Source of the DNA: Eledone cirrhosa
Lineage: Eukaryota
Reading direction: 5' to 3'
Length of the DNA stretch: 64,000 nucleotides
NCBI GenBank assembly: GCA_964016885.1
Contig: OZ024747.1
Location: 72,974,001 to 73,038,000, forward strand
Below, piece after piece: positions 1,575-52,704 of the stretch (position 1 is the stretch's first letter; every line of letters begins with the position of its first letter). The notes beneath the pieces were generated by a model. That model ran no database searches. It saw only the letters and a program-made list of their open reading frames with translations, and had not been told where the DNA came from. Made by a program: the position numbers and the translations under genes.

Positions 1575-1579
1575 TTGAT

Positions 1580-7252: not shown

Positions 7253-7257
7253 TTGAT

Positions 7258-12909: not shown

Positions 12910-12914
12910 TTGAT

Positions 12915-18632: not shown

Positions 18633-18637
18633 TTGAT

Positions 18638-20473: not shown

Positions 20474-20675
20474 GCTGCCAAGAAAGAAATTTTTCGGCAA
20501 AAATAGATATTTATTTTACCCCCTAAAAAGGGGGTAAATGCAAAAATGTTTCCCTAAATAACAGGGGTTAGTGTTTCAAATGTGTTGCACTAAAAAATGT
20601 ATCCGGTACTTACAATAGTAAGGGTAAATCCCGATGGAATAGCGGAGCCGATGCGAAGCGTGTCTCACTCTATCA

Positions 20676-20714
<39 letters not shown>

Positions 20715-20958
20715 AAGAGATAGATAAATTTCTATTTATTTGCCACGAGGGCACAAAAGAAGGGGACATTTACACAGTGGGGGAGTTTACATAAATCGAG
20801 TAAAGAAAAAAGGAATAACAATAATAATATAACAATAAAAAGTCCTCAAAAGGGAGGGGGCGTGTTGGGGATTGCACATACCCCCGAAAAGTGTGCAACT
20901 CTTTTCGCGGGGGAAGCCCAGAGAGGAGGCGCTCCTCCTTTCCTCTTCACTTCTTCAC

Positions 20959-24387: not shown

Positions 24388-24392
24388 TTGAT

Positions 24393-26234
24393 CTATTTTG
24401 GTGTTGAAAGTGAAGAAAGAAAAGCACTTACCTCTCCGGGTTGCGTAATTTCCATGGCATCAGGTGTGTTGGGTGGAGGGATGTTTTGTGGTGGTGTGGG
24501 GGTACACGTGTGTGGTGGGGTTGGGGTATTTGGAGTTGTGTCAGGGAGAGGGGCGGTTATGGGGAAATCTTTCAAGAGGACGCGATTCAACGGTTTTAAA
24601 CAGGGGGGGCTCACGTCCCGTCTAAATTGTTCTTTTAAGGAACGATAAAGGTCCAGAGGGACCTTTATCATTTTTAAATGGGTGAAGTTCTCTGTTGAGA
24701 TAAAGTTTGGCCCTTCGGTCTGCACCATAGGGTTATTGTTTATTAATTTAACCAGTTTTTTGTTTTCTTTATTTATATATGTGTATTGCAACGTCTTTTT
24801 TTGTGATGCTGTCAATGTTTCGGAGAGGGGAGGCGCAGATTTATTTTTGTTTGTTGAGGGTGGGGTGTTTTTGATTGGAGTTGGTGTTTGTGTGTGGGTT
24901 ATTTGTGGTGTGCTGGGTGTGTGTTTTCTTTTTTTTCTTTTAACTTGTCTGAAGGCTTCTCCTCCTTCTTCTTCAGAAGTTGGGGGAAACTCTTCAGCGC
25001 TAGGTGGGAGGGACGTGTTGTGTGGTTGTTTTTTTTTTGCGGGAGGGGTAGATTTGTTACTGTTTTTTTTATTATTTGTTTGGGATGGGTTTTGTGGTGG
25101 TGGTGGTGGTAATGTTTGTGTCGTGCTTGTGGTTGGTGATGGTGGTGGTGATGTTTGTGTTGTGGTTGGTGGTGGTGATTTTTGTGTCGTGCTTGTGTTT
25201 GGTGCTGGTGGTGGTGATGTTTGTGTTGTGTTTGTGGTTGGTGGTGTCTGTATTTTGTTTGCTGTGTGTGGTATTAGTGTATTTTTGGAGGTGGGTGGTG
25301 CTGGTGTACTGTTTGTGGTGGGTGTGGGCAATAGTCCTTTTTGGGGGATACGTTTCGGGCAGTTAGCCTTAACGTGTCCCCTTTCCATGCATAAATAGCA
25401 TGCTGGTCTTCTCCCCTCTACAATTATGTCTATTGGGGTAAGGTCATCCAGCCAGATGCGATCCGGGATTTGTGCTATTCTTTCGGGCCTCATTTGGACT
25501 AGTATGTCGAGGCCCATTCCCAGGAACGCATCTCCAGTTGCCTTCCCCATTGACAGCATAGTGTCTTCGCCCATATCAATGAAGCCAGCAATAGCCCACC
25601 AGAAGTCCATTGTGGGCAGCATTGTTTTTACTTTTACTCTCTGTGTTCTTCTACCCATGTAGGAGGGATAGAAGCTATATGTTGTCGACGAGAGTGGGCT
25701 TAGGGAAAGCTTCTCCGCCGTTTCTTTGTCTCTTGTTAGGACCGAAATGCTGCCATAGAGTCGGTCCTTTCGTATGAAGAGAATATTCTTCATATAGTCT
25801 TTTAGGACTAACTCTATTTCCATTTGGCTGGGCTGTGCTGGCTTTCTTGTCTGGTTCAGTATAGTTCTGTATATAACTGTGTTTTCTGCTCTGGCTTTCT
25901 TGAATTCTGGGGGGGGGGGGGAGTTAATGGAAAACATTCTGTTCTCCCCCAAAACAATATGTTTCTTTGCTTCGGCCAGTTTTTCTCTGGCGGCAGTTAG
26001 GTCAATTGGTGTGTATGTAATGGATTGCTTTGTTTTCTGGGCGAAAGTTGCCCTGTCGTTATTTGTATTATTTTCTGTTTGTTTGTTTTCTGTTTGCTCA
26101 TTTTCCTTAACATTTGTTTTTTCATTTTGTTTGTTTGTTTCAATGTCTAATTTTGTTGTAATTATTTTTTGTTCTTCAGACTTGGGGGGCGTGGCAGAGC
26201 TAATGGCAGACATGTCTGCCATCTTTTCCGCCAT
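24393..26234 (-). CDS. Copy 5 ORF1, open (2 extra Pro from a C-tract expansion)
   Basis: 622-aa ORF; reads SPPPPE where other copies read SPPE. Confidence 0.9.
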   Translation of the reverse strand: MAEKMADMSAISSATPPKSEEQKIITTKLDIETNKQNEKTNVKENEQTENKQTENNTNNDRATFAQKTKQSITYTPIDLTAAREKLAEAKKHIVLGENRMFSINSPPPPEFKKARAENTVIYRTILNQTRKPAQPSQMEIELVLKDYMKNILFIRKDRLYGSISVLTRDKETAEKLSLSPLSSTTYSFYPSYMGRRTQRVKVKTMLPTMDFWWAIAGFIDMGEDTMLSMGKATGDAFLGMGLDILVQMRPERIAQIPDRIWLDDLTPIDIIVEGRRPACYLCMERGHVKANCPKRIPQKGLLPTPTTNSTPAPPTSKNTLIPHTANKIQTPPTTNTTQTSPPPAPNTSTTQKSPPPTTTQTSPPPSPTTSTTQTLPPPPPQNPSQTNNKKNSNKSTPPAKKKQPHNTSLPPSAEEFPPTSEEEGGEAFRQVKRKKRKHTPSTPQITHTQTPTPIKNTPPSTNKNKSAPPLSETLTASQKKTLQYTYINKENKKLVKLINNNPMVQTEGPNFISTENFTHLKMIKVPLDLYRSLKEQFRRDVSPPCLKPLNRVLLKDFPITAPLPDTTPNTPTPPHTCTPTPPQNIPPPNTPDAMEITQPGEVSAFLSSLSTPK

Positions 26235-26493
26235 GCTGCCAAGAAAGAAATTTTTCGGCAAAAATAGATATTTATTTTACCCCCTAAAAGGGGGTAAATG
26301 CAAAAATGTTTCCCTAAATAACAGGGGTTAGTGTTCCAAATGTGTTGCACTAAAAAATTTATCCGGTACTTACAATAGTAAGGGTAAATCCCGATGGAAT
26401 AGCGGAGCCGATGCGAAGCGTGTCTTACTCTATCAAGATAGATAGATAGAGATAAAGAGGAGTATTCAACAATTTAGAGTAGAAGCCAGTTTT

Positions 26494-32470: not shown

Positions 32471-33197
32471 ATATATATATACGTATGCACAAATGAAACA
32501 GAAATAACAAAGCAAACGACACATTGCATTGAAGAAATATATTAGTTTATCGCTTGTTATAGTAGTAAAAAAAGTCTTGACGTTTCAGATACTAGTCTTT
32601 CATCACAAGATAGAATGAGAAATAACAGATAAAATAGAAAGAGAGAGAGAGAGAGAGAGAAGAGGAAGGAACAGAAAAAACACGTGTGTATCCAATCATA
32701 TTTGTGTTTAATCGATACATATAAAATATATATTATGTATCTCAATAGAACATTAGTTCAGAGCAATCAATTATACAACATACATAATTGGTGATTCTAA
32801 TTACTAAGATCAATGGTGTACATCTTATCTTGGGGTTTCATCTCTCTAAGGTATTATAGGCTTTGTTACCATCTTGAAGTATATTTACTTACACATTAAT
32901 TGCTCTGTATAGATGTACAAAATACTAGTTTCTCTATTGATATGCATCTTTTTTACATATCGTTTAAACTTGTATATCTATCTATCTATCTATCTTGATA
33001 GAGTAAGACACGCTTCGCATCGGCTCCGCTATTCCATTGGGATTTACCCTTACTATTGTAAGTACAGGATAAATTTTTTAGTGCAACACATTTGGAACAC
33101 TAACCCCTGTTATTTAGGGAAACATTTTTGCATTTACCCCCTTTTTAGGGGGTAAAATAAATATCTATTTTTGCCGAAAAATTTCTTTCTTGGCAGC

Positions 33198-35033
33198 ATG
33201 GCGGAAAAGATGGCAGACATGTCTGCCATTAGCTCTGCCACGCCCCCCAAGTCTGAAGAACAAAAAATAATTACAACAAAATTAGACATTGAAACAAACA
33301 AACAAAATGAAAAAACAAATGTTAAGGAAAATGAGCAAACAGAAAACAAACAAACAGAAAATAATACAAATAACGACAGGGCAACTTTCGCCCAGAAAAC
33401 AAAACAATCCATTACATACACACCAATTGACCTAACTGCCGCCAGAGAAAAACTGGCAGAAGCAAAGAAACATATTGTTTTGGGGGAGAACGGAATGTTT
33501 TCCATTAACTCCCCCCCAGAATTCAAGAAAGCCAGAGCAGAAAACACAGTTCTATACAGAACTATACTGAACCAGACAAGAAAGCCAGCACAGCCCAGCC
33601 AAATGGAAATAGAGTTAGTCCTAAAAGACTATATGAAGAATATTCTCTTCATACGAAAGGACCGACTCTATGGCAGCATTTCGGTCCTAACAAGAGACAA
33701 AGAAACGGCGGAGAAGCTTTCCCTAAGCCCACTCTCGTCGACAACATATAGCTTCTATCCCTCCTACATGGGTAGAAGAACACAGAGAGTAAAAGTAAAA
33801 ACAATGCTGCCCACAATGGACTTCTGGTGGGCTATTGCTGGCTTCATTGATATGGGCGAAGACACTATGCTGTCAATGGGGAAGGCAACTGGAGATGCGT
33901 TCCTGGGAATGGGCCTCGACATACTAGTCCAAATGAGGCCCGAAAGAATAGCACAAATCCCGGATCGCATCTGGCTGGATGACCTTACCCCAATAGACAT
34001 AATTGTAGAGGGGAGAAGACCAGCATGCTATTTATGCATGGAAAGGGGACACGTTAAGGCTAACTGCCCGAAACGTATCCCCCAAAAAGGACTATTGCCC
34101 ACACCCACCACAAACAGTACACCAGCACGACCCACCTCCAAAAATACACTAATACCACACACAGCAAACAAAATACAGACACCACCAACCACAAACACAA
34201 CACAAACATCACCACCACCAGCACCAAACACAAGCACGACACAAAAATCACCACCACCAACCACAACACAAACATCACCACCACCATCACCAACCACAAG
34301 CACGACACAAACATTACCACCACCACCACCACAAAACCCATTCCAAACAAATAATAAAAAAAACAGTAACAAATCTACCCCTCCCGCAAAAAAAAAACAA
34401 CCACACAACACGTCCCTCCCACCTAGCGCTGAAGAGTTTCCCCCAACTTCTGAAGAAGAAGGAGGAGAAGCCTTCAGACAAGTTAAAAGAAAAAAAAGAA
34501 AACACACACCCAGCACACCACAAATAACCCACACACAAACACCAACTCCAATCAAAAACACCCCACCCTCAACAAACAAAAATAAATCTGCGCCTCCCCT
34601 CTCCGAAACATTGACAGCATCACAAAAAAAGACGTTGCAATACACATATATAAATAAAGAAAACAAAAAACTGGTTAAATTAATAAACAATAACCCTATG
34701 GTGCAGACCGAAGGGCCAAACTTTATCTCAACAGAGAACTTCACCCATTTAAAAATGATAAAGGTCCCTCTGGACCTTTATCGTTCCTTAAAAGAACAAT
34801 TTAGACGGGACGTGAGCCCCCCCTGTTTAAAACCGTTGAATCGCGTCCTCTTGAAAGATTTCCCCATAACCGCCCCTCTCCCTGACACAACTCCAAATAC
34901 CCCAACCCCACCACACACGTGTACCCCCACACCACCACAAAACATCCCTCCACCCAACACACCTGATGCCATGGAAATTACGCAACCCGGAGAGGTAAGT
35001 GCTTTTCTTTCTTCACTTTCAACACCAAAATAG
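33198..35033 (+). CDS. Copy 6 ORF1, open (611 aa from ATG)
   Basis: First ATG at 33198, CCHC knuckle, TAG at 35031-35033. Confidence 0.9.
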   Translation: MAEKMADMSAISSATPPKSEEQKIITTKLDIETNKQNEKTNVKENEQTENKQTENNTNNDRATFAQKTKQSITYTPIDLTAAREKLAEAKKHIVLGENGMFSINSPPEFKKARAENTVLYRTILNQTRKPAQPSQMEIELVLKDYMKNILFIRKDRLYGSISVLTRDKETAEKLSLSPLSSTTYSFYPSYMGRRTQRVKVKTMLPTMDFWWAIAGFIDMGEDTMLSMGKATGDAFLGMGLDILVQMRPERIAQIPDRIWLDDLTPIDIIVEGRRPACYLCMERGHVKANCPKRIPQKGLLPTPTTNSTPARPTSKNTLIPHTANKIQTPPTTNTTQTSPPPAPNTSTTQKSPPPTTTQTSPPPSPTTSTTQTLPPPPPQNPFQTNNKKNSNKSTPPAKKKQPHNTSLPPSAEEFPPTSEEEGGEAFRQVKRKKRKHTPSTPQITHTQTPTPIKNTPPSTNKNKSAPPLSETLTASQKKTLQYTYINKENKKLVKLINNNPMVQTEGPNFISTENFTHLKMIKVPLDLYRSLKEQFRRDVSPPCLKPLNRVLLKDFPITAPLPDTTPNTPTPPHTCTPTPPQNIPPPNTPDAMEITQPGEVSAFLSSLSTPK

Positions 35034-35038
35034 ATCAA

Positions 35039-38000
35039 TTGAGAGTTGGCTGTTTGAACGCGCGTGGCCTGAGCTCAGCTTGGAAGCAAGCAAAGCTTCT
35101 AAGTGACCTCAGGTCACAAAGTATAGATGTGATGGTTGTTTGCGAGAGTCGGATCAGCAGCGTGAGACAGCTGGCGCCCGCCTTCGATGACTTTGAGATG
35201 CACGCATCTCTCTGTCAACCCGGAGGCGGGGGGGGGGAGTTGCCGTACTGCTGGATAAACGTCTGACTCTCGACGTACAGATTGTTCACTCGGACCCGGG
35301 GCGTCGATTACTGGTGCTGGACGTCGGAGGTGGTGAAGGCGGGGCTTTCAGACTGGTCGGACTTTATGCTCCCTTCGGGGCGGAAAGAGCCGACTTCTTC
35401 CAACGTCTGGAGACTTTTCTAGGAACGTCGCGTTCCCTGCTTTTAGTGGGGGACTGGAATGGAATCCTAGATGCGCGTTGGGACTATGCAGGGGCATGTC
35501 CCGATAGAGGGGGGTGTAGCAGCCTCAAGGGGTTACTCGATCGATTCGACCTGGTCGATAGATTTCGACTAGATTGTCCAACTGCGCCAACCTGGACCTG
35601 GGCAAACCGCAGTGGACAATCTAGATCGTACCTAGATAGGTTTTTGGTTAGGAGTAAGGATAGGGACGTATTTAGTTGTCCAGAACTGATCATGGTTGGC
35701 TATTCAGATCACAAATTAGTGACCTGCGTGGTCAACCTTGATAGAACGCATAGACAGGGTCCCGGTTACTGGAAGATGAACTTGTCCTTACCGACAAAGA
35801 AAGATTACAGAAACCGGATTAGTAGCTTAGTTAAGATGCGGTTGACGGGAGCGATCGTCAACAGTAGGTGGTGGATATCTCTAAAGAGAGAGATTAGAGT
35901 AAGTTCGATAGGTTACAGTAAGGAACTAGCGGCGAATAGAAATAGGAGGGAAAGGGAGTTAACAGATAAACTAGAAGAGGCGATTAGGAGCGGAGACGTA
36001 GCCAGAGTGTTAGCGACGAGAACGGCATTGAGCCAGTTCTTTGACGCGAAGCACGAAGGCTGCGTTGTCCGAAGTAAAATACGTGCTTTAGGAAACGAGG
36101 GGACCAAAGCTGTTAGCTGGGCCCGCGTGACAGAAGCCAAGAGTGGGATTAAATCCACCATTCGGTCTTTGCGAGACCAGGATGGACGGGTGATCCTTGA
36201 ACCTGAGCGAATGTGCGAGACCTTTCAAAGGCACTTTGCTCGACTGTTCGGAGGTGGCGGGGGGCCGGACGGGGATGTGGACTTCGGTCCATACCTCGAC
36301 GGTCTACCGCGTCTTTCGAGCGGCGAAGCGGAGTGCTGCGAAGGGCCAATCACAGCCACTGAAATCGGGGAAGCGCTCAGCCAATGCAGCAGACGCAAAT
36401 CCCCGGGTCTCGATGGTCTACCATACGAACTTTATTTAGCTATGCCGGTCTTGTTCTCCGAACTCCTCGAGGCTGTCTATTGCAACTGGCAACAGAACGG
36501 GAGAACTCCCTGTTCTGTGACCAAGGGCGTGGTCACGCTAGTGAGGAAGGACGAGAGCAAGGGGGACGACTTAAGTAACTTTAGGCCCATAACTCTGCTG
36601 AATGCAGAGTTACAGATTTTGGCCAAGGTGTTGGCGAAGAGGTTGGCGCTTGTGGTGGGTGGTTTGGCGGGAGACGCGCAGACATGCGCTATCCCGTCCA
36701 GGTCCATTCACGACAACCTCCACCTCATGCGATACATCATAGAGAGGGTTGGCTACGAACCCGGCTTTGGTGGGGCCCTGATCAACTTGGATCAATCTAA
36801 GGCGTTCGATAGGGTCGACCATGGTTACCTGGATGCGGTGCTAGCGGCGGCAGGCTTCGGACCCGTTTTCAGGGGCTGGATTTCTGCCGTGCACAGTGGC
36901 AACATCTACTCTAGGATTAAAGTAAACGGCTACCTCTCGGAGCCGTTTCAAATCACCCGATCCATCAGACAGGGGTGCCCCCTCTCCTCCCTTCTGTACG
37001 TATTGACTCTCGAGCCACTGCTGCGGAAGTTGGAGTTGCTGCGGGGAATACCCCTGGAACCGGGATTGCACAAAGCGGTCTCGGCCTATGCCGACGACGT
37101 AACAGTAATGGTGGCGGACGCCTCGGAAATCGGGGCGATCGCCACCCTACTGGAGGAATACGAAAGGCTGACGGGGGCTAAGCTGAACCAGGACAAGTCA
37201 GTCGGTTTGCAACTCGGAACGTGGAGGGGCAAACCGATGCCGTTAGACGGTGTCGTCGGGCGGTGGACGGAGGGCCCGGTGAAGCTGCTCGGGGTCTGGT
37301 TCGGACCGGACCTCCAGGTGGAGAAGAATTGGGGCGAGGTGACGAGCAGGGTGTTTGCGCTGACCCAGAAGTGGGCCAAGTGCAAACTATCACTGAAAGG
37401 TCGGGCGGAGGTGACGAACGCTTACATAGCGTCCGTCATCTACTACCGCCTGACCGTCGTGCCTTGCCCCAAGGAAAAGCTCACCATCATGGAACGCATG
37501 CTCTTCCAGTTCCTCTGGAAGAAGCGGCCTCCCATGGTGAGGAGATCCATCTGCTGCCAGCACCCTTCGAAAGGAGGGCTGGGTATGCCGTGGCTGTTGA
37601 TGCGTAGGCACGCATTGAGGCTACGGCATCTACAGGTATTCCTCAACGGTCAGCCGGTGTGGGCCCCGTTTGTGAGGCGAGCCTTCCCACAGCTCGTCTC
37701 GCTCACCGAACTGCAATCCTGGGTGAAGCAAAGACCGAGAAAACTGGGCAACTGGCACACCGAGTGTGCCCAGGCGCTCACGGCTATCTGGCAAGCGGAC
37801 CCGACTGTCAGTGGAGAATCCACCTCGACATTCTATAGAGGGTTGGTGGCTAGCAGGGGCGACGACACCCTTGGAGAGTCGCTAGGCATGGAGGAGGACG
37901 AACTGGCCAGCCTGTTCGGTAGAACTTTCGGCCCGGGACCCATGGACAACTTCCAGAGGTCCCTAGCCTGGCAGTGTTACCGGGGGGCTCTGCCCGTTCG

Positions 38001-38469
38001 AGAAAAGCTCTACAGACACGGGCGCCCGGGCAGGGATCCAGCGAAAAAGATCTGTCCCAGATGCGTGCGCGACGAGGAAACCGTTGCGCATGCACTGGTA
38101 CGCTGCCCGGGCGTTGCCGATCTGTGGGGCTACGTCGAACGACTGCTGTCGCGTGTGGCGCCGATTCGATTAACCGCCGAGTCTGTGGTGAACATCAAGC
38201 CGCCGCCTCCCTTCAGAAACGAAGCAGAGGCGGTATTTCTGTGCGTAATAGCCATGATGAAAGAGGTTGTGTGGTGGACGCGCCTGAAAGGTCTGAGGTC
38301 GGGTGACTTTCTCTCCGGCCATCACCTGGTTTACTTCTTCCGATACCACTTCGGAAGAAGGATCAGGATGGAGAGAGAAGTGCTTGGCCCCAGACAGTTT
38401 TATGAAAGGTGGGTGAAAGAAGCGAGAATGGCTCGTGTAAATGGGCCTTCTCTCTACATTGTTCTGTAG
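35039..38469 (+). pseudogene. Copy 6 ORF2, frameshifted at a G10 tract; His of the C-terminal CCHC changed to Arg-adjacent variant (ALVRC)
   Basis: G10 at 35228-35237 versus G8 splits ORF2 into 75-aa and 1051-aa ORFs. Confidence 0.8.
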
Positions 38470-38715
38470 GTGAAGAAGTGAAAAGGAAAGGGGGAGCGCC
38501 TCCTCTCTGGGCTTCCCCCGCGAAAAGGGTTGCACACTTTTCGGGGGTATGTGCAATCCCGAACACGCCCCCTCCCTTTTGAGGACTTTTTATTATTATA
38601 TTATTATTGTTATTCCTTTTTCTTTACTCGATTTATGTAAACTCCCCCACTGTGTATTTGTCCCCTTCTTTTGTGCCCACGTGGCAAATAAATAGAAATT
38701 TATCTATCTATCTAT

Positions 38716-39564
38716 TGGTCCGCAGCAAGTGCGACGACACGCTTGGAGAAACTCTAAGCGTAGAGGAGGACGAACTGGCCAGTCTGTTCGGTAGGACCTT
38801 CCGCCCGCGACCAATGGACAACTTCCAAAAGTCCCTGGCCTGGCAGTGCTACCGAGGAGCTCTACCAGTTCGCGACAAGGTCTACAGACACGGGCGCCCG
38901 GGTAGGGACCCTTCGAAAAAGATCTGTCCGAGATGCGTGCGCGACGAGGAAACTGTCGCGCACGCATTTGTACACTGCCCGGGCGTTACCGACCCGTGGG
39001 GCTATGTAGAACGACTATTATCGCTGGTGGGACCAATCCGGTTGACCACCGAGTCCATTGTCATGATCAAACCGCCACCCTGCTTCAAAAACGAGGGAGA
39101 GGCGGTTTTCCTATGTGTTATGGCTATGGTGAAAGAGGTTATATGGTGGACGAGGTTAAAAGGGCTGAGGTCAGACACCTTTCTCTCCGACGAGCACTGA
39201 TTCGTTTTTTCAAATATCATTTTGGAAGAAGAATCAGGATGGAGAGAGAGGTGCTGTACCCCAGCAAATTTTATAAAAGGTGGGTGAATGTGGCAAAGAT
39301 GGCCCGAGAGGTTGGGCCTTCTCTCTATATAAGCCTGTAGTTGGAGGAAGAGAGGAAGGGAGTACTCACTCTTGGTGATCCTGGAGATGAGGGTTGTACA
39401 TTTTTTCGGGGTGTGTACAACCCCTGTGTAACACCTCCTCCTTATTGGGGATATCAATTGTTATTTGTTATTTTATTAATAGTTTTATTTTCATATACCT
39501 GTATGTAAACTCCCCATTTGTATTTGTCCCCTTCTTTTGTGCCCTTGTGGCTAATAAAGAAATT
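38716..39564 (+). mobile_element. Family B: 5'-truncated, diverged sister element (ORF2 C-terminus and 3'UTR)
   Basis: Translates to DDTLGETLSVEEDELASLFGRTF..CPRCVRDEETVAHAFVHC, homologous to family A with many substitutions. Ends AATAAAGAAATT plus (TATC)3. Confidence 0.92.
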
Positions 39565-40021
39565 TATCTATCTATCTACATATATATGCATACATAAATA
39601 CACACAAACACAAACACACATATATGGGATGCTACAAGTTGCGACACGTTCTCCAGATTTAATTTATTCCACCCGGCCACAAATCCAGACAGCGCCACCT
39701 GTAACATAGAGGAGTGAAAGATAATCAGATATCGCCTGATTCTTTTTTGTTCTTATTGCCATGGAGATTTCTGGTGTCCTTAGTCTACTGACTGCCATTT
39801 TTCTCCGAAATATCAGGAGGAGTGTATGTCGTCTGAAGAAGAAACCTCATATATTTCCAATGGTTCATTTAAAGATGTCGCTGTCCTCTGTTGTAATGTT
39901 TTTGCCAAATTGTCTGCGAGGCACAGCTGAAATATTCCGATCAGCCAAGTCTTTTCTCCTTTTCTCTTTTAATTTAATTTTTTCTATCCCACCCCTTTTC
40001 TCTTTTTCTGTTTATCGATCT

Positions 40022-40160
40022 AAGTTCAAATCCAGCCGAAGTTAACTTTGTTTTTCTTCTTCACGAGTCCGATAAAATAAAACAATAGTAATGTACTGGG
40101 ATCGATTTAATCGATTTTCTCCTTTCCTAAAAATTGTAGTCCCTGTGCCTAAATCAGAAA
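40022..40160 (+). mobile_element. 5'-truncated tRNA-type SINE
   Basis: B-box-like GTTCAAATCC followed by the central block (..GATAAAATAAA..GTACTGGG..) shared with 40164, 57261 and 57428. Confidence 0.7.
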
Positions 40161-40163
40161 TCA

Positions 40164-40342
40164 TGGCAGTATCGGTAGAGGGTCGGGCGCCATGCTGTGA
40201 CGTATAGAGTTACGGTCCTTGCCATTCTGAGTTCAAATCCCGCCGAGGTTAACTTTGCCTTTCATCCTTACGGGGTCGATAAAATAAAGTACCAGTAATG
40301 CACTGGGTAATTGCTGGCCTTGTGTCAAAAGTAGAAACAATT
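40164..40342 (+). mobile_element. tRNA-derived SINE
   Basis: A-box-like TGGCAGTATCGG, B-box GAGTTCAAATCC, central GCCTTTCATCCTTACGGGGTCGATAAAATAAAGTACCAG. From memory this resembles Meta/Sauria-type SINE cores; unverified. Confidence 0.78.
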
Positions 40343-40450
40343 ATTTACATTAAAAAAAAATCATTATTGTATGCCATATATATATATATATATATAGATA
40401 TATATATAAATAAGAACGGAGAAAGAGATATAGAGAAAGAACCGAGCTAA

Positions 40451-40568
40451 GTACTAGATTGGTTCTTCTTTTGTCGTCATCGAATGGATGAAAGGAAAAA
40501 TTGACCTCGGCGGGATTTGAACTTATAGCAAAGGTTCAATGTGACGTTCCAACGACCTCGCCGTTAGC
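40451..40568 (-). mobile_element. Decayed copy of the same SINE, inverted
   Basis: GGATGAAAGG..GACCTCGGCGGGATTTGAACT is the reverse complement of the B-box and central block at 40229-40270. Confidence 0.65.
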
Positions 40569-41005
40569 TATGGACATTCTTCTAGTTTCTTTTTATGTTA
40601 TATAAAGATATTAGCTAAATTTTATTGTTACGGTTTTCTTTTGTATTTTCCTTTGCTTTTATGATTTTTACTTTCGTAACTTCCAGTTTTTTCACTCACA
40701 CACACACACATATATATATATACACACACTCACACACACACGCACGCACACACACATACACACATGATTTCTCTTTGATAATGGATGGTTAATCTGAAAA
40801 TGTTTGGGACTAATAAATTGCTAAGGTAACTTTCAGTCATTCCTTTTTTGCCCTTCTCACAGATTGCGCTGCTTTCTTTATCTCTCTCGCAATTCATTTC
40901 CAACTTGTTACCTTGGTAATTCTAACCCACTTCCATATTGTATATCTTTCTAAACACACCCACTTTTTATTTTCATATTCCACAATGTTGCAAGCAAAAC
41001 GACTA

Positions 41006-41008
<3 letters not shown>

Positions 41009-41077
<69 letters not shown>
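41009..41077. repeat. (TA)n microsatellite
   Basis: Seen directly. Confidence 0.97.
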
Positions 41078-41081
<4 letters not shown>

Positions 41082-43135
41082 ATACTTTGGGAGGGTCATG
41101 TTGCCATTAAGAAACACACGCACCAGTGGCTTTCACTTCAATTTATTATAATAAATTTATAAATTTAGGAATTTATAAATTTCTGGTTGGTTGGTTCCAC
41201 AACCAGATGATTGTTTATATATTGTCAAAGTTCTTTCGTCACACATTCTGTGACCTTTTCAGTGACTGGGGATTCTTTTCTTTGTTTTTGTGCCTCTCCT
41301 TTGTTCTGTCCTACGCCATCTTGTTTTTGTGTGTGTGTTGTATATATATATATATATATATATATGTTGTGTGTTGTATATATATATATATATCTGGTCG
41401 GAATTTTTTTTCACTCTCGTCTACGATTTCACAGAACTTATGTTTACCGAATTCGCAGACCAGACCCCTTCTTCCTCCCGTTAGACCTGTGTGAAATTCC
41501 TTCCTTGCTCACATTTCAACCAGGTTTGATGGTCTTTATTCTCTCGTTCACGATTTCACCGAACTTAAATTCATAGAAATCTGGGACTTGTCTCCTTTCC
41601 TCACTTTCTGTTGCCTCACCATTTTGTTTGTTTACCCTCGCGTCCCCTTTATTTACGTGTCCCAACGACTTTTTTTAGCCGTTGCTCGCACCAACCGGAG
41701 GTATATGGTCTTTAAAGCGATGAAATGCCTATGATAGTTGGAAGATCACTGATGAAGGACAAACTTTTTTCATATGTAACCCATTTGCAACTCCGCAGTG
41801 CCCTTATTATCATATATATATATATATATATAAAATCCTCAACATATAAGAGTCGAAGCTTAATATACCTTGTGCCAATATACGGATTATGATGCTGAAC
41901 CCACAATTGTAGCTTACTCCTGTTTGTAGACCAACAATACTCTTTATGGCTACAATATTAAGAATCTGATGTACTACTCTTATAGTCTTGTAAGTTTCCA
42001 CAACCTTGTTTTCACCTTTTCACCCTTTAAACAATTTAACCCTAATTAATATTCGTTCCTATCATTAATTCTCATTTGTGTTGTATTGTATTGAACTATA
42101 AATGTAATTTGTATTCTGCTTAAATTTATTTGTATTTTAATTAATTCATGTTGTATTGTATATTTATCTTCCATTTTTTTTTTACAAAATTATCTTAGCA
42201 TTTTTATCTTGTTAAAGTTTTTCACATTTGTATTTCATTGTATTGATAATTGTAATTTAGCGTGAATAAATATGAAATATCCAGGAGCGCTGCAAGGATA
42301 TGATAGTATCAAGCCTTTAGCTGCACAATAGAAACTGAAGACGAGTAGGGAATGAAATGAAAGAATGTGAGATTGTATTATGAGAGATTCAATGTGACAA
42401 TTATGATGTGTTGCTGTGAGGAGAGGGCCGAGGTTTTTGTTTGTTTCAAGTAGGACTGAATTGTAGTTTCGGCAGATCGTTTTATATCTAAGTATACATC
42501 GTTAACATCGACAAAATTTCATTTCACACCGGTTATTTATATTTTAATGAAAAGTTGTGACGAAGTCGATGGAATTGAGGAAAAGTATCATATAATTTCT
42601 AGTAATGTACCCCAGGCTAGAACTTGACAAACAAAAGAAAATGTTGAAAAAAAAAAGATACAGAAGCAAAGGAATAAGAAGATACTGAGGGAGTTCTGTT
42701 GGACTTAGCCAGAAAAGAGACTTAAGTTTAAACTGTATGTATGTATGTATGTATGCATGTATGCGCAGGGAGATGGAAATATTTGGTTTTGTGCCCGAGC
42801 GTGTGGTTAGCCTTGCGGGAGTGAGAGACCCTAGTTCTTATTAGGACATCGTTCAAGGATGTAAAACCTGCGCCTCCATAGCAACCAGTGATGTTGACCT
42901 ATTTGGCTTTTGAATAATTGCCGTCGTTGTTAAGGCAGTGCAAGGTCTTGCTCCACTTCAAAAAGCTTCAAAGACAGGCATCACTTGTTCTAAACGACAT
43001 TCCTATGTGTTGCACAATCCGACATGTTTACGAACATTTTGGTTATATATATAGTGTTTACGAAAATCTCAGAGAAGCAATTCAAGAAGTCTTTAGCTTC
43101 TAGTACACACACTCGCACACATACATAGATAGAGA

Positions 43136-43188
<53 letters not shown>

Positions 43189-43296
43189 GGAGAGAGGGAA
43201 GAGAGAAACAATGATTTAAGAAAATTTAACTTCTTTATACAAACTCTACTATACGTATTGATTACTACTTTTTGATTTGTTTCGCACGCCCCCCCC

Positions 43297-43358
<62 letters not shown>

Positions 43359-44027
43359 TAAATGGTACTGTAGATATGATATGACATAATGTTCTATGAA
43401 CATTACAACACGCAATATAGAATATATGAATTAATCAATTTTCCATTAGAAAATATTTCTATGGTGTTTTACATGCGCATCCTGTTTGTGACTATATTTC
43501 ATCTTTACTGAGACTGTAAAACTAGAAATGAATTCATTGTTTCGAAACGTTTTCTTGAAATCCTTCAACAACAATTAGCTATTTGTTGTCTTAATTTCTC
43601 TTTTGCAGTTCTTAGTAGACACTGAAGGTTTGCTGCTAAAATCCTGTTATTATTAGCTTCCATATTCACTCGCAACTTGTCTATACAGTTTCATTCTATA
43701 TTGATAATCTATAGATTTTTTTTCTGTTCAAATTTTCTTTAGTATACTTCGAAGTTACTCTTTGATTTTTGTTAAATATTTTCTTTTCTCCTCATTATGT
43801 TAACCAGTCTAGATTTATTTAGTTTTCTTGTAAATATTTAGAATAGCCTCGTTGAAGATTGTGGCTGTGACAACTACGTAAAACATGAAAAGTTTTGTCA
43901 CAGAAGAATGGAGTCGGATTACTTTATACATATCTGGACAATTGTTTTTCTGGAAACATCTCATCTGCATTGAATCAATATACAGTATAAAGTACTTAGT
44001 TTACATATATATCATTTAATTCGACAA

Positions 44028-44835
44028 ATTGCTCCCATCCTCCCATCCTCCCTCCTCCCATCCTCCCTCCTCCCATCCTCCCTCCTCCCATCCTCCCTCC
44101 TCCCATTCTCCCTCCTCCATATCCCCCCCCCCCCCTCCATATCCTCCCTCCTCCCATCCTCCCCTCCTCCCCTCCTCCCATCCTCCCTCCTCCCATCCTC
44201 CCGTCCTCCCCTCCTCCCACCCTCCCACCCTCCTGTACTCCCGTCCTCCCATCCTCCCGTCCTCCCGTCCTCCCCTCCTCCCGTACTCCCATCCTCCCAT
44301 CCGCCCGTCCTCCCATCCTCCCATCCTCCCGTACTTCTATCCTCCCGTCCTCCCATCCTCCCGTACTCCCATCCTCCCGTCCTCCCATCCTCCCGTCCTC
44401 CCGTCCTCCCATCCTCCCGTCCTCCCATCCTCCCATCCTCCCATCCTCCCGTCCTCCCGTCCTCCCCTCCTCCCGTACTCCCATCCTCCCATCCTCCCAC
44501 CCTCCCATCCTCCCGTCCTCCCGTCCTCCCCTCCTCCCGTACTCCCATCCTCCCATCCTCCCACCCTCCCATCCTCCCGTCCTCCCATCCTCCCACCCTC
44601 CCATCCTCCCGTCCTCCCATCCTCCCATCCTCCCGTCCTCCCGTCCTCCCCTCCTCCCGTACTCCCATCCTCCCATCCGCCCGTCCTCCCATCCTCCCAT
44701 CCTCCCGTACTTCTATCCTCCCGTCCTCCCATCCTCCCGTACTCCCATCCTCCCGTCCTCCCATCCTCCCGTCCTCCCGTCCTCCCATCCTCCCGTCCTC
44801 CCATCCTCCCATCCTCCCATCCTCCCCTCCTCCCA
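44028..44835. repeat. Pyrimidine-rich 8-bp minisatellite (CCTCCCAT/CCTCCCGT)n
   Basis: About 800 bp of 8-bp units with variants; source of the Gly/Glu/Asp-rich spurious ORFs. Confidence 0.95.
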
Positions 44836-45489
44836 GCCTCGTATCCATGTCTTGGGCAACTTGATAGTAGTCAACTATTATATTAGTTTATTGCAGATAT
44901 GAAACACAGACACATACAGACGCACACACACTGATATATAGAAACACATACACACACGTACACCATTCATAACACATAGCACACAAACACAAGCACACAC
45001 ACATATATATATATACAAACACACACTACATAGACACATATAAACATACATTGCTATACAAACATCCAAATATAACCCCCCCCCCCCACACACAATACAC
45101 ACAGATACCCCCCTCCCCCACTCCGAGCAATGAGTATTTACACTCAGTGCTTCGATAATGAAAAAAAGGTTTTTTCGTGCCAATCCAAAGAATTATTAAA
45201 TGAAGGAAGTAAAATAGAGACTTGCAGAGATGATAGTGGCCATAATGGTATTATGGTGATATCTTTACTGCTATGGCATATATTCAGACAATCTTACACA
45301 ATGGTATATTATACAAATACATACAAACATATATACATACATATATACATATATACATACATATATCTATACACATACACGCATAATACATACATGGTGG
45401 CTGCCAACTCGTTTTCAAGTACGGCCACTACTTTATATCCATGTAGGAGAACGCCTACCGATGCGCTGAACAAGTGTGACTTTTTAGTC

Positions 45490-46000
45490 TAGCCAGCGAC
45501 TTGAAAACTCTGGTACAAACACTACACCTGTGACAATTATTGACACATAGTGCTGGGCCCATGGTACCATGTGACGACAAGTGCAGAGAGATCTCCAGAT
45601 ATAAAGCAATGCCTGTGTCGTGAAGCTTTTATAGTGTGCAAAGGCACTGCACAAAGCCTGTCCCACTCTCTTAACCAAGATGATATTTACCAAAAAGAAG
45701 AACAAGTCAACATCATTGGATACCATCAGGGTTGCAGGTGTTATATCAGAGTTTTCCTTCTCCTAGAATTCTGCCTTGACAAAGGCTAAGGGGTCATCTC
45801 TCCCGGTGATTTTGGATGGCCATTGACTCTTAAGAGCTCCTTTGCCCTTTGACAGGTTTTGTTTTTAGTCCTGCAGGATGTCCAAAGTCACCCTCCTCAC
45901 CAAGAAACCTTCGTGGGGTTGCCAGTTTAGTCGCCAATTACCCGACCATGAGACAGGTTGTACTGGGATACATGTTACCAGTAGCACCAACTGGTGACCT
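45490..46000 (-). mobile_element. Probable decayed retroposon (RTE-associated or non-autonomous) with a structured 5' end
   Basis: Non-microsatellite island between CA/TA-rich tracts, with a hairpin-rich end at 45905-46000. The family assignment is from memory only. Confidence 0.35.
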
Positions 46001-46309
46001 GACATATAAAACATACATATATACATACATACCTGAATACATACATACATGCACACATACACCGACACATATATAACTCTAATATCTATCTATCTATCTA
46101 TCTATCTTGATAGAGTAAGACACGCTTCGCATCGGCTCCGCTATTCCATCGGGATTTACCCTTACTATTGTAAGTACCGGATAAATTTTTTAGTGCAACA
46201 CATTTGGAACACTAACCCGTGTTATTTAGGGAAACATTTTTGCATTTACCCCCTTTTTAGGGGGTAAAATAAATATCTATTTTTGCCGAAAAATTTCTTT
46301 CTTGGCAGC

Positions 46310-48130
46310 ATGGCGGAAAAGATGGCAGACATGTCTGCCATTAGCTCTGCCACGCCCCCCAAGTCTGAAGAACAAAAAATAATTACAACAAAATTAGACA
46401 TTGAAACAAACAAACAAAATGAAAAAACAAATGTTAAGGAAAATGAGCAAACAGAAAACAAACAAACAGAAAATAATACAAATAACGACAGGGCAACTTT
46501 CGCCCAGAAAACAAAACAATCCATTACATACACACCAATTGACCTAACTGCCGCCAGAGAAAAACTGGCCGAAGCAAAGAAACGCATTGTTTTGGGGGAG
46601 AACGGAATGTTTTCCATTAACTCCCCCCCAGAATTCAAGAAAGCCAGAGCAGAAAACACAGTTCTCTACAGAACTATACTGAACCAGACAAGAAAGCCAG
46701 CACAGCCCAGCCAAATGGAAATAGAGTTAGTCCTAAAAGACTATATGAAGAATATTCTCTTCATACGAAAGGACCGACTCTATGGCAGCATTTCAGTCCT
46801 AACAAGAGACAAAAAAACGGCGGAGAAGCTTTCCCTAAGCCCACTCTCATCGACAACATATAGCTTCTATCCCTCCTACATGGGTAGAAGAACACAGAGA
46901 GTAAAAGTAAAAACAATGCTGCCCACAATGGACTTCTGGTGGGCTATTGCTGGCTTCATTGATATGGGCGAAGACACAATGCTGTCAATGGGGAAGGCAA
47001 CTGGAGATGCGTTCCTGGGAATGGGCCTCGACATACTAGTCCAAATGAGGCCCGAAAGAATAGCACAAATCCCGGATCGCATCTGGCTGGATGACCTTAC
47101 CCCAATAGACATAATTGTAGAGGGGAGAAGACCAGCATGCTATTTATGCATGGAAAGGGGACACGTTAAGGCTAACTGCCCGAAACGTATACCCCAAAAA
47201 GGACTATTGCCCACACCCACCACAAACAGTACACCAACACCACGCACCTCCAAAAATACACTAATACCACACACAGCAAACAAAATACAGACACCACCAA
47301 CCACAAACACAACACAAACATCACCACCACCAGCACCAAACACAAGCACGACACAAAAATCACCACCACCAACCACAACACAAACACCACCATCACCAAG
47401 CACGACACAAACATTACCACCACCACCACAAAACCCATTCCAAACAAATAATAAAAAAAACAGTAACAAATCTACCCCTCCCGCAAAAAAAAACAACCAC
47501 ACAACACGTCCCTCCCACCTAGCGCTGAAGAGTTTCACCCAACTTCTGAAGAAGCAGGAGGAGAAGCCTTCAGAGAAGTTAAAAGAAAAAAAAGAAAACA
47601 CACACCCAGCACACCACAAATAACCCACACACAAACACCAACTCCAATCAAAAACACCCCACCCTCAACAAACAAAAATAAATCTGCGCCTCCCCTCTCC
47701 GAAACATTGACAGCATCACAAAAAAAGACGTTGCAATACACATATATAAATAAAGAAAACAAAAAAACTGGTTAAATTAATAAACAATAACCCTATGGTG
47801 CAGACCGAAGGGCCAAACTTTATCTCAACAGAGAACTTCACCCATTTAAAAATGATAAAGGTCCCTCTGGACCTTTATCGTTCCTTAAAAGAACAATTTA
47901 GACGGGACGTGAGCCCCCCCTGTTTAAAACCGTTGAATCGCGTCCTCTTGAAAGATTTCCCCATAACCGCCCCTCTCCCTGACACAACTCCAAATACCCC
48001 AACCCCACCACACACGTGTACCCCCACACCACCACAAAACATCCCTTCACCCAACACACCTGATGCCATGGAAATTACGCAACCCGGAGAGGTAAGTGCT
48101 TTTCTTTCTTCACTTTCAACACCAAAATAG
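46310..48130 (+). pseudogene. Copy 7 ORF1, frameshifted in A-runs
   Basis: Split into 446-aa and 111-aa pieces; A-run indels near 47490 and 47765. Confidence 0.82.
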
Positions 48131-48135
48131 ATCAA

Positions 48136-51100
48136 TTGAGAGTTGGCTGTTTGAACGCGCGTGGCCTGGGATCAGCTTGGAAGCAAGCAAAGCTTCTAAG
48201 TGACCTCAGGTCACAAAGTATAGATGTGATGGTTGTTTGCGAGAGTCGGATCAGCAGCGTGAGACAGCTGGCGCCCGCCTTCGATGACTTTGAGATGCAC
48301 GCATCTCTCTGTCAACCCGGAGGCGGGGGGGGGGGGGGAGTTGCCGTACTGCTGGATAAACGTCTGACTCTCGACGTACAGATTGTTCACTCGGACCCGG
48401 GGGGTCGATTACTGGTGCTGGACGTCGGAGGCGGTGAAGGCGGGGCTTTCAGACTGGTCGGTCTTTATGCTCCCTTCGGGGCGGAAAGAGCCGACTTCTT
48501 CCAGCGTCTGGAGACTTTTCTAGGAACGTTGCGTTCCCTGCTTTTAGTGGGGGACTGGAATGGAATCCTAGATGCGCGTTGGGACTATGCAGGGGCATGT
48601 CCCGATAGAGGGGGGGGGGTGTAGCAGCCTCAAGGGGTTACTCGATCGATTCGACCTGGTCGATAGATTTCGACTAGATTGTCCAACTGCGCCAACCTGG
48701 ACCTGGGCAAACCGCAGTGGACAATCTAGATCGTACCTAGATAGGTTTTTGGTTAGGAGTAAGGATAGGGACGTATTTAGTTGTCCAGAACTGATCATGG
48801 TTGGCTATTCAGATCACAAATTAGTGACCTGCGTGGTCAACCTTGATAGAACGCATAGACAGGGTCCCGGTTACTGGAAGATGAACTTGTCCTTACCGAC
48901 AAAGAAAGATTACAGAAACCGGATTAGTAGCTTAGTTAAGATGCGGTTGACGGGAGCGATCGTCAACAGTAGGTGGTGGATATCTCTAAAGAGAGAGATT
49001 AGAGTAAGTTCGATAGGTTACAGTAAGGAACTAGCGGCGAATAGAAATAGGAAGGAAAGGGAGTTAACAGATAAACTAGAAGAGGCGATTAGGAGCGGAG
49101 ACGTAGCCAGAGTGTTAGCAACGAGAACGGCATTGAGCCAGTTCTTTGACGCGAAGCACGAAGGCTGCGTTGTCCGAAGTAAAATACGTGCTTTAGGAAA
49201 CGAGGAGACCAAAGCTTTTAGCTGGGCCCGCGTGACAGAAGCCAAGAGTGGGATTAAATCCACCATTCGGTCTTTGCGAGACCAGGATGGACGGGTGATC
49301 CTTGAACCTGAGCGAATGTGCGAGACCTTTCAAAGGCACTTTGCTCGACTGTTCGGAGGTGGCGGGGGGCCGGACGGGGATGTGGACTTCGGTCCATACC
49401 TCGACGGTTTACCGCGTCTTTCGAGCGGCGAAGCGGAGTGCTGCGAAAGGCCAATCACAGCCACTGAAATCGGGGAAGCGCTCAGCCAATGCAGCAGACG
49501 CAAATCCCCGGGTCTCGATGGTCTACCATACGAACTTTATTTAGCTATGCCGGTCTTGTTCTCCGAACTCCTCGAGGCTGTCTATTGCAACTGGCAACAG
49601 AACGGGAGAATTCCCTGTTCTGTGACCAAGGGCGTGGTCACGCTAGTGAGGAAGGACGAGAGCAAGGGGGACGACTTAAGTAACTTTAGGCCCATAACTC
49701 TGCTGAATGCAGAGTTACAGATTTTGGCCAAGGTGCTGGCGAAGAGGTTGGCGCTTGTGGTGTGTGGTTTGGTGGGAGACGCGCAGACATGCGCTATCCC
49801 GTCCAGGTCCATTCACGACAACCTCCACCTCATGCGATACATCATAGAGAGGGTTGGCTACGAACCCGGCTTTGGTGGGGCCCTGATCAACTTGGATCAA
49901 TCTAAGGCGTTCGATAGGGTCGACCATGGTTACCTGGATGCGGTGCTAGCGGCGGCGGGCTTCGGACCCGTTTTCAGGGGCTGGATTTCTGCCATGCACA
50001 GTGGCAACATCTACTCTAGGATTAAAGTAAACGGCTACCTCTCGGAGCCGTTTCAAATCACCCGATCCATCAGACAGGGGTGCCCCCTCTCCTCCCTTCT
50101 GTACGTATTGACTCTCGAGCCACTGCTGCGGAAGTTGGAGTTGCTGCGGGGCATACCCCTGGAACCGGGATTGCACAAAGCGGTCTCGGCCTATGCCGAC
50201 GACGTAACAGTAATGGTGGCGGACGCCTCGGAAATCGGGGCGATCGCCACCCTACTGGAGGAATACGAAAGGCTGACGGGGGCTAAGCTGAACCAGGACA
50301 AGTCAGTCGGTTTGCAACTCGGAACGTGGAGGGGCAAACCGATGCCGTTAGACGGTGTCGTCGGGCGGTGGACGGAGGGCCCGGTGAAGCTGCTCGGGGT
50401 CTGGTTCGGACCGGACCTCCAGGTGGAGAAGAATTGGGGCGAGGTGACGAGCAGGGTGTTTGCGCTGACCCAGAAGTGGGCCAAGTGCAAACTATCACTG
50501 AAAGGTCGGGCGGAGGTGACGAACGCTTACATAGCGTCCGTCATCTACTACCGCCTGACCGTCGTGCCTTGCCCCAAGGAAAAGCTCACCATCATGGAAC
50601 GCATGCTCTTCCAATTCCTCTGGAAGAAGCGGCCTCCCATGGTGAGGAGATCCATCTGCTGCCAGCACCCTTCGAAAGGAGGGCTGGGTATGCCGTGGCT
50701 GTTGATGCGTAGGCACGCATTGAGGCTACGGCATCTACAGGTATTCCTCAACAGTCAGCCGGAGTGGGCCCCGTTTGTGAGGCGAGCCTTCCCACAGCTC
50801 GTCTCGCTCACCGAACTGCAATCCTGGGTGAAGCAAAGACCGAGAAAACTAGGCAACTGGCACACCGAGTGTGCCCAGGCGCTCACGGCTATCTGGCAAG
50901 CGGACCCGACTGTCAGTGGAGAATCCACCTCGACATTCTATAGAGGGTTGGTGGCTAGCAGGGGCGACGACACCCTTGGAGAGTCGCTAGGCATGGAGGA
51001 GGACGAACTGGCCAGCCTGTTCGGTAGAACTTTCGGCCCGGGACCCATGGACAACTTCCAGAGGTCCCTAGCCTGGCAGTGTTACCGGGGGGCTCTGCCC

Positions 51101-51573
51101 GTTCGAGAAAAGCTCTACAGACACGGGCGCCCGGGCAGGGATCCCGCGAAAAAGATCTGTCCCAGATGCGTGCGCGACGAGGAAACCGTTGCGCATGCAC
51201 TGGTACACTGCCCGGGCGTTGCCGATCTGTGGGGCTACGTCGAACGACTGCTGTCGCGTGTGGCGCCGATTCGATTAACCGCCGAGTCTGTGGTGAACAT
51301 CAAGCCGCCTCCTCCCTTCAGAAATGAAGCAGAGGCGGTCTTTCTGTGCGTAATAGCCATGATGAAAGAGGTTGTGTGGTGGACGCGCCTGAAAGGTCTG
51401 AGGTCGGGTGACTTTCTCTCCGGCCATCACCTGGTTTACTTCTTCCGATACCACTTCGGAAGAAGAATCAGGATGGAGAGAGAAGTGCTTGGTCCCAGAC
51501 AGTTTTATGAAAGGTGGGTGAAAAAGCGAGAATGGCCCGTGTAAATGGGCCTTCTCTCTACATTGTTCTGTAG
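48136..51573 (+). pseudogene. Copy 7 ORF2, frameshifted
   Basis: G14 tract (in frame), G10 versus G6 at 48610-48619 (frameshift), and a 1-nt deletion near 51523. Confidence 0.82.
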
Positions 51574-51825
51574 GTGAAGAAGTGAAGAGGAAAGGGGGAG
51601 CGCCTCCTCTCTGGGCTTCCCCCGCGAAAAGAGTTGCACACTTTTCGGGGGTATGTGCAATCCCCAACACGCCCCCTCCCTTTTGAGGACTTTTTATTGT
51701 TATATTATTATTGTTATTCCTTTTTTCTTTACTCGATTTATGTAAACTCCCCCACTGTGTAAATGTCCCCTTCTTTTGTGCCCTCGTGGCAAATAAATAG
51801 AAATTTATCTATCTATCTATCTATC

Positions 51826-52559
51826 AGGCTTGGCAGTGCTACCGAGGAGCTCTACCAGTTCGAGACAAGCTCTACAGACATGGGCGCCCGGGCAGGGACC
51901 CTTCGAAAAAGATCTGTCCGGGATGCGTGCGAGACTAAGAAACCGTCGCGCACGCATTCGTACACTGCCTGGGCGTTACCGACCTGTGGGGCAATGTAGA
52001 ACGACTATTGTCGCGGGTGGGACCAATCCGGTTGACCACCGAATCCATTGTCATGATCAAACCACCACCCTCCTTCAAAAACGAAGGAGAGGCGGTTTTC
52101 CTTTGTGTGATAGCTATGGCGAAAGAGGTTGTAGGGTGGACAAGGTTGAAAGGGCTGAGGTCAGACACCTTTCTCTCCGGCCAACAACTGATTCTTTTTT
52201 TCAAATACCACTTTGGAAGAAGAATCAGGATGGAGAGAGAGGTCCTGTACCCCAGAAATTTTTATGAAAGGTGGGTGAAAGTGGCGAGAATGGCCCGAGT
52301 GAATAGGCCTTCTCTATATCAGCCTGTAGGTTGAGGAAAAAGAGGAAGAGAGGAAAGGGGTACTCACTCTTCGTACTCCTGGAGATAAGGGTTGCACATT
52401 TTTTTTCGTGGGTATGCGTTACCCATATGTAATGTCTCCCCCTATCGATTAATTTTTAAATTGCATTTGTGATAGTATTTTACACGTTTTTATTGTATGT
52501 AAACTTCCCCCTTTGTATTTCTCTCCTTCTTTTGTGCCCCTGTGGCTAATAAAGAAACA
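51826..52559 (+). mobile_element. Family B second 5'-truncated copy
   Basis: Starts at the AWQCYRGALP-coding region with indels; 3'UTR resembles 39340-39564; ends AATAAAGAAACA plus (TATC)4. Confidence 0.9.
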
Positions 52560-52704
52560 TATCTATCTATCTATCAGTGCGTGGAGGAAGCAGACAGAGT
52601 GGTTGCACTCTTTCACGATCGCAACTTGCCCAGCGGGGGAAAGGCGCAGGAGATGACGTCACAATGAAAGTCCCCACCGTCAATAATGATGGGGACGAGA
52701 ATAA

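Follow-up and report, generated by a model that had tools for sequence, protein, structure and literature searches.

The window analyzed here, a 64,000-nucleotide stretch of the genome of Eledone cirrhosa (NCBI GenBank assembly GCA_964016885.1, contig OZ024747.1, positions 72,974,001 to 73,038,000, forward strand), contains seven copies of a 5.7-kb long interspersed nuclear element (LINE), which we call family A, five of them arranged head to tail on the minus strand and two on the plus strand, together with two 5'-truncated pieces of a second family, B. The best explanation of their placement is that A and B are sister families of an L1-group LINE that targets (TATC)n microsatellites. Elements are stacked upon one another at these targets, and the stacking is real, but recombination has reshuffled the array of A copies, from which the sequence of insertions cannot be read cleanly. 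What the window contributes is a LINE family specific to TATC, along with a clear small-scale case of an array that grows by re-insertion plus unequal exchange.

The association with TATC is not due to chance, because all 29 matches to TATCTATC in the window lie at element ends (in 10 runs, each adjoining an A or B end), whereas shuffled sequences held a mean of 1.56 matches and none of 100 shuffles reached 29. Within this one window, TATC adjoins the six visible A heads, six A tails, and two B tails. The junctions between elements are pure TATC in five of six cases, the sixth (between copies 5 and 4) carrying a (TC)n spacer. If this specificity is true, (TATC)n is a target that we did not find for any LINE in the literature searched, a search that left most subscription papers and Repbase uncovered and is no proof of absence; an account of the polarity of LINE insertion at a microsatellite target was likewise not found in that literature. 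The tail pattern shared by A and B had no match in metagenome contigs or in viral contigs. An alignment search of public contigs with the protein of the second open reading frame (ORF2) retained 80 of 89 confirmed loci, with best segments at 22 to 51% identity; none of the 80 carried (TATC)3 or more, none resembled the tail of A or of B at the DNA level, and a second piece resembling a reverse transcriptase (RT) was present at one, on the opposite strand. These loci have no bearing on polarity.

Microsatellite targets and tandem insertions are described for Tx1, R1, and other clades, with TATC/GATA not among the targets in the accessible portions of the papers (PMC4494074, PMC3812793, PMC4640811). 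Kibi, Koshi, and crocodilian Tx1 are microsatellite-targeting LINEs of the Tx1 clade (PMC4494074, PMC3812793). As far as those portions describe them, they share with A an APE endonuclease and RT, two ORFs, and strict placement in one motif; the targets listed there are TC, TTC, TTCC/TTTC, ACAY, AC, TAA, and TG, whereas A uses (TATC)n, which is absent from that list. For an octopus genome, 13 recently active L1-Tx1 families are reported, with targets not given in the accessible part of the source (PMC13282606).

Family A is an L1-group LINE, and pairwise divergence among its copies 3 to 7 is 0.30 to 1.05%. By Pfam, ORF2 contains APE endonuclease (PF03372, E = 8e-9) and RT (PF00078, E = 4e-24) domains, both above the cut-offs, as well as a weak zf-RVT match (PF13966, E = 3e-5, 25.1 bits, below the cut-off of 27.5). 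The closest solved relative of ORF2 is human L1 ORF2p (E = 1e-48, residues 26 to 876; R2, E = 3e-22) in a structure search whose 14 matches were all L1-derived or R2 proteins, so that the comparison covers L1 and R2 alone; a PDB search with a shortened endonuclease piece returned three spurious designed-repeat matches and nothing else. ORF1 has a CCHC knuckle (C-x2-C-x4-H-x4-C at residue 277), and neither of two A ORF1s scanned had a Pfam match. A separate ORF1 with a CCHC knuckle is typical of Tx1, and A may be labeled Tx1-like on the basis of anatomy and target habit, not of a tree. A homolog search yielded 67 proteins (best identity, 68%). The proteins P0005, P0010, P0022, and P0025, relatives at 40 to 45% identity, stand for clusters of 109 to 732 members on long contigs, which we read as a related high-copy family in another genome.

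The open ORF2 frame extends 55 codons ahead of its first ATG, into the last part of ORF1 (window positions 24294-24459, minus strand), and the L1 match begins within this pre-ATG portion; ORF2 probably starts without an ATG of its own. All six visible A heads start with TTGATAGAG, and head and target together form a small inverted repeat, TCTATC-TT-GATAGA (e.g., 32985-33003), that could influence 5' joining or re-cutting at A heads. The tails of A and B, whose final ~45 nucleotides align closely, end in AATAAA, 6 to 8 nucleotides, and then TATC, without poly(A), a structure that would fit priming on a read-through repeat.

Stacking of one family on the other is observed at the two plus-strand loci. 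An earlier note on this DNA had described copies 6 and 7 as each ending in (TATC)3-5 followed directly by a decayed B piece, which the boundaries confirm (38700/38716 and 51805/51826), and it was also correct that the two B pieces, B6 and B7, differ in truncation point and sequence: their starts lie ~120 nucleotides apart (ORF2 residue ~905 vs ~945), and they are 86.5% identical to each other (620/717) and 75 to 76% identical to A. Given this identity, their different starts, and a frame lesion in each (a 1-bp frameshift in B6 and a premature stop in B7), they represent separate insertions older than A. The simplest reading of these sequences is that at both loci A would have landed in the TATC tract lying 5' of an older, resident B piece, since the B pieces carry stops or frameshifts and are 13.5% apart, while A copies are only 0.3 to 1.05% apart. 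The reverse case, B as a younger insertion into the A tail, was rejected because the B pieces are broken and that far apart. About half of the B6-B7 differences are synonymous (24 synonymous, 23 nonsynonymous), so part of the 13.5% distance would lie between B sublineages and predate insertion, overstating the age of B. A search of four flanking regions turned up nothing further that resembles A or B. The A-then-B order at two of two loci (p = 0.25 one-sided, 0.5 two-sided) is weak evidence of a head-side preference: the tract upstream of B would have held at least 5 and at least 6 units (at most ~9 and ~11) vs 3 and 4 downstream, and the chance of two upstream choices under a length-proportional null is 0.38 to 0.55.

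The minus-strand array presents a different record. The latest-formed unit appears to lie inside it, because copy 2 is a mosaic of both its neighbors. Over alignment columns 1-2268, copy 2 has no substitution relative to copy 1, and copy 3 differs there at 12 sites; beyond column 2268, a single substitution and a single deletion separate copy 2 from copy 3. Sorting of the 23 substitution sites is perfect, the first 12 agreeing with copy 1 and the remaining 11 with copy 3 (P = 1.5e-6), and 28 of 29 sites are sorted when indels are included, the exception being a private deletion of copy 3. Both junctions flanking copy 2 are the same single TATC, and incompatible pairs of informative sites number 22 of 120 with copy 2 and 3 of 36 without it. 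An unequal crossover between copies 1 and 3 would predict exactly such a mosaic with a duplicated junction. Double insertion at a retained target followed by unequal exchange has been described by McGurk and Barbash (PMC5932611); in the accessible part of that Drosophila population survey, identical junctions mark expansion, as they do on both sides of copy 2, whereas the array here is one assembled haplotype. A mosaic internal unit with a duplicated junction, the mark of expansion by unequal exchange, is thus seen in copy 2, for which an origin in assembly is also possible. Under each of these histories, the unit formed last either lies within the array or is not real.

The 5' end of the array departs from simple stacking as well. 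Copy 5 lies outside the head tract of copy 4, separated from it by (TATC)2, a (TC)n stretch of ~26 bp, and a (TATC)4 that is free, and its outer flank is TC-rich too, which suggests that copies 5 and 4 may have inserted separately, each into its own tract within a single compound microsatellite; alternatively, the spacer may come from a transduced tail. The proposal that arrays record insertion order is contradicted here, both by copy 2, a recombinant or duplicate of its neighbors, and by the position of copy 5.

Two features that had been taken as marks of age, open frames and counts of private substitutions, are poor age markers in such arrays. Copy 5 is not the sole fully intact copy, as had been claimed, for in copy 3, too, neither frame is interrupted (stop-to-stop lengths of 625 and 1159 codons vs 627 and 1166). 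Copy 5 itself has lesions, namely, a +6 C homopolymer expansion that is in frame by luck and two private ORF2 changes at columns invariant among all 10 relatives. In copies 4 and 6, the ORF2 frame is broken by changes in G-run length (8, 8, 8, 12, 8, 10, and 14 over the seven copies), the same kind of change as in the C-run of copy 5. The ORF1 frameshift of copy 1 is common to copy 2 and to copy 7, 40 kb away, and was thus inherited or converted rather than acquired by decay in place. Copies 1, 2, and 7 share this frameshift, a 3-bp deletion, and a substitution (columns 1137-1400), leaving an ORF1 frame of 446 to 451 codons with the knuckle upstream of the break; a sublineage with shortened ORF1 seems to have spread or been converted between loci.

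The cluster of private substitutions reported for copy 1 at 116-460 was borne out (eight private in 345 bp, plus one common to copy 7; P = 0.0006 vs uniform), but not as a mark of age, as copy 6, supposedly young, has 10 private substitutions in an equal-sized window and is denser than copy 1 (0 of 5,000 simulations). Private sites per kilobase in copies 6 and 7 (4.5 and 4.9) exceed those of every array copy. Simple decay was rejected for the copy 1 tract, in which changes are clustered, one matching 7 of 10 relatives and another breaking a column invariant in 10 of 10. The tracts of copies 1 and 6 look as if they may derive from other sublineages. The copy 6 tail (~37980-38700) carries 15 private substitutions, 6 of which match a B allele; these matches are noncontiguous, and conversion of the tail by B6 was rejected. 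The composition of this tail suggests a possible origin in an older A sublineage.

We propose that the endonuclease nicks inside a TATC tract and that priming occurs there, as known target-primed reverse transcription would imply. Each insertion would leave TATC on both sides, and both tracts would remain usable targets. B would have inserted first and then decayed, and A would later have entered the tract 5' of B at both loci, most simply as the longer target (at least 5 and at least 6 units vs 3 and 4). Re-insertion would have given rise to a few independent array copies (5, 4, 3, and 1), one of which would have taken a tract of its own within a compound microsatellite, while unequal exchange between copies 1 and 3 may have made copy 2 in midarray and conversion or template switching may have left the divergent tracts. 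Stacking would arise because targets are retained; direction needs an extra asymmetry. We give an even chance to the account in which tract-length chance plus exchange explains the stacking and array position does not give insertion order.

Several observations weigh against this account. The data come from one window and one assembled haplotype, in which no empty site was seen and any target-site duplication is masked by the repeat. Both informative loci show the order predicted by head-side insertion, and tract lengths shrink from 5' to 3' at both (5 > 3.75 > 3 and 6 > 5 > 4), a trend noted post hoc. Many of the sites sorted along copy 2 are private to either copy 1 or copy 3, which makes other recombination histories of copies 1 to 3 possible. 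Finally, along the array in the order copies 5, 4, 3, and 1 (used in all gradient tests, with copy 2 omitted unless stated), distance to the majority sequence is 6, 9, 7, and 18 (rho = 0.8, p = 0.17), and private sites per kilobase over all visible sequence are 1.22, 1.75, 1.92, and 3.85 (rho = 1.0, p = 0.042).

The age gradient that the earlier note had anticipated along the array stands in part: on most measures divergence is lowest in copy 5 and highest in copy 1, but only one of seven versions of the test gave p < 0.05. Private sites on shared columns number 4, 7, 6, and 14 (p = 0.17). With the copy 1 tract removed, these counts become 3, 7, 6, and 6 (rho = 0.32, p = 0.5) and the rates per kilobase become 1.22, 1.75, 1.92, and 1.82 (p = 0.17). 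Retaining copy 2 gives rho = 0.3 (p = 0.34). Copies 5, 4, and 3 are indistinguishable in private counts (7, 10, and 11; p = 0.63). The 5'-to-3' rise in divergence among copies 5, 4, 3, and 1 is weak and depends largely on the copy 1 tract. Array copies are 0.30 to 0.49% apart and 0.63 to 0.83% from copies 6 and 7, so private counts track relatedness, not age.

A real head-side polarity is a possible, if rather doubtful, alternative. The endonuclease would need a long or intact upstream tract and nick near the 3' end of the tract, the remainder staying 5', and the array would have been ordered initially and later partly scrambled by exchange. The predicted order at two of two loci and the 5'-to-3' shortening of tracts at both are in its favor (a biased nick would likewise give such shortening), as are a 5' tract longer than the 3' tract for copies 5, 6, and 7 (3/2, 5/3.75, and 6/5; post hoc), the weak divergence gradient (p = 0.04 to 0.17 on three measures), and the precedent of R1, which inserts at the 5' end of resident elements and in D. 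ananassae has R1A tandems upstream of R1B in the accessible part of the source (PMC2718515). However, the polarity of R1 would rest on a unique, nonrepetitive target, and here the same repeat lies on both sides; copy 5 skipped the free (TATC)4 at the head of copy 4; and the gradient vanishes on shared columns without the copy 1 tract (p = 0.5) and falls to rho = 0.3 (p = 0.34) with copy 2. Head-side landing by A is seen at two loci only, and we regard a real bias as conceivable rather than probable. Only tentatively, then, could one suppose that stacking at a symmetric repeat is one-directional and that families layer from old (3') to young (5') genome-wide where unscrambled. A bias of this kind, if it held throughout the genome, would carry the R1 rule over to a target that is a symmetric microsatellite, and it would indicate the position of the endonuclease nick and offer a way to order LINE families in time.

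The rule itself has precedent, because head-side re-insertion is already published for R1, another site-specific LINE. In the portion of the work available, tandem R1s of Drosophila arise when a new copy inserts into the target-site duplication that borders a resident R1 on its 5' side, and in D. ananassae every R1A tandem lay upstream of R1B (PMC2718515). R1 arrays and A are alike, so far as described there, in being site-specific APE-type LINEs with target-derived spacers and one family upstream of another. They differ in that R1 uses one site in 28S ribosomal DNA (rDNA), with differing junctions, whereas A has microsatellite on both sides, so that polarity is not automatic, and was seen at two loci. 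Membership of A in the R1 clade proper was ruled out, as its flanks are microsatellite and low-complexity DNA, not 28S rDNA; an Rfam scan of 38600-64000 gave no matches.

In HeT-A/TART/TAHRE arrays, the newest copy lies at the 5' end by terminal addition. Those telomeric arrays of head-to-tail LINEs add to chromosome ends, according to the accessible part of the source (bioRxiv 10.1101/782904), whereas the A array is bordered at its 5' end by >37 kb of other DNA, which excludes terminal addition as its mechanism. A telomeric HTT-type array was ruled out, since beyond the head of copy 5 come satellites, more A loci, and other DNA to the window end.

It is improbable that the A-B pairs moved as units by 3' transduction, in which A transcripts read through a weak poly(A) signal into a downstream B whose tail resembles that of A and is used for priming; an upstream B would be untranscribed, and A-then-B order would be enriched without any insertion preference. 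The likeness of the last ~45 nucleotides of the two tails, both with AATAAA and then TATC, is consistent with this route, and 3' transduction is described for L1 in the accessible part of PMC3812793. The route needs two different source loci, each itself formed in A-then-B order, and neither A-B junction has a second copy in the window. We also consider it unlikely that copy 2, along with some of the frameshifts in homopolymers, is an artefact of assembly or consensus, with a false unit built from copy 1 and copy 3 reads. In favor of this reading, no substitution is private to copy 2 once copy 1 is included in the count, 13 of 17 listed indel rows lie in or beside homopolymer or short-repeat runs, and G-run lengths vary. 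Against it, copy 2 lacks the 21-bp deletion and one substitution of copy 3 and is no letter-for-letter splice of its two assembled neighbors. An artefact would remove the recombination event but neither support an age ladder nor alter the A-B order.

Table 1. Elements, TATC tracts, and junctions in the window
Feature	Position	Strand	Remarks
A copy 1, cut by window edge	1..3588	-	ORF1 frameshift: 1-bp loss in A-run common to copies 2 and 7
Copy 1 tract	116..460	-	Private substitutions: 5 nonsynonymous and 3 synonymous; 1 further substitution common to copy 7
Junction copy 2/copy 1, single TATC	3589..3592	-	Identical to copy 3/copy 2 junction
A copy 2	3593..9266	-	Mosaic of copies 1 and 3
Putative copy 1/copy 3 crossover interval within copy 2	6890..7043	-	Columns 2268-2421, placed via copy 1/copy 2 offset
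Junction copy 3/copy 2, single TATC	9267..9270	-	
A copy 3	9271..14952	-	Both frames open; 21-bp in-frame ORF2 deletion
Junction copy 4/copy 3, (TATC)4	14953..14968	-	
A copy 4	14969..20676	-	ORF2 frameshift: G-run 12 vs 8
Compound junction copy 5/copy 4: (TATC)2, ~26 bp (TC)n, (TATC)4	20677..20726	-	
A copy 5	20727..26436	-	ORF1 24393-26234; ORF2 frame 20959-24459 (APE endonuclease, RT, zf-RVT); C-run 13 vs 7, in frame
(TATC)3 tract 5' of copy 5	26437..26448	-	Preceded by TATCTC
(TATC)5 tract 5' of copy 6	32975..32994	+	
A copy 6	32995..38700	+	ORF2 frameshift: G-run 10 vs 8; 15 private substitutions in last ~720 columns
Junction copy 6/B6, (TATC)3+TAT	38701..38715	+	
B6, 5'-truncated family B piece	38716..39564	+	76% to A; one frameshift
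B6 tail (TATC)3	39565..39576	+	Unoccupied
(TATC)6 tract 5' of copy 7	46083..46106	+	
A copy 7	46107..51805	+	ORF1 frameshift common to copies 1 and 2; ORF2: two G-run expansions, 1-bp loss
Junction copy 7/B7, (TATC)5	51806..51825	+	
B7, 5'-truncated family B piece	51826..52559	+	Identity 75% with A and 86.5% with B6; a single premature stop
B7 tail (TATC)4	52560..52575	+	Unoccupied

A tRNA search of the window found none. Short dispersed repeats at 40019-40307 and 57428-57647, without an Rfam or tRNA match, are 75 to 80% alike; they look like pieces of short interspersed nuclear elements (SINEs) and presumably resemble octopus SINEs. Four satellites adjoin the LINE loci, with units of 17 bp (47 copies, 26493-27282), 12 bp (419 copies, 27387-32405), 8 bp (102 copies, 44032-44840), and 86 bp (3 copies, 52844-53103), and the long "ORFs" over them are repeat artefacts.

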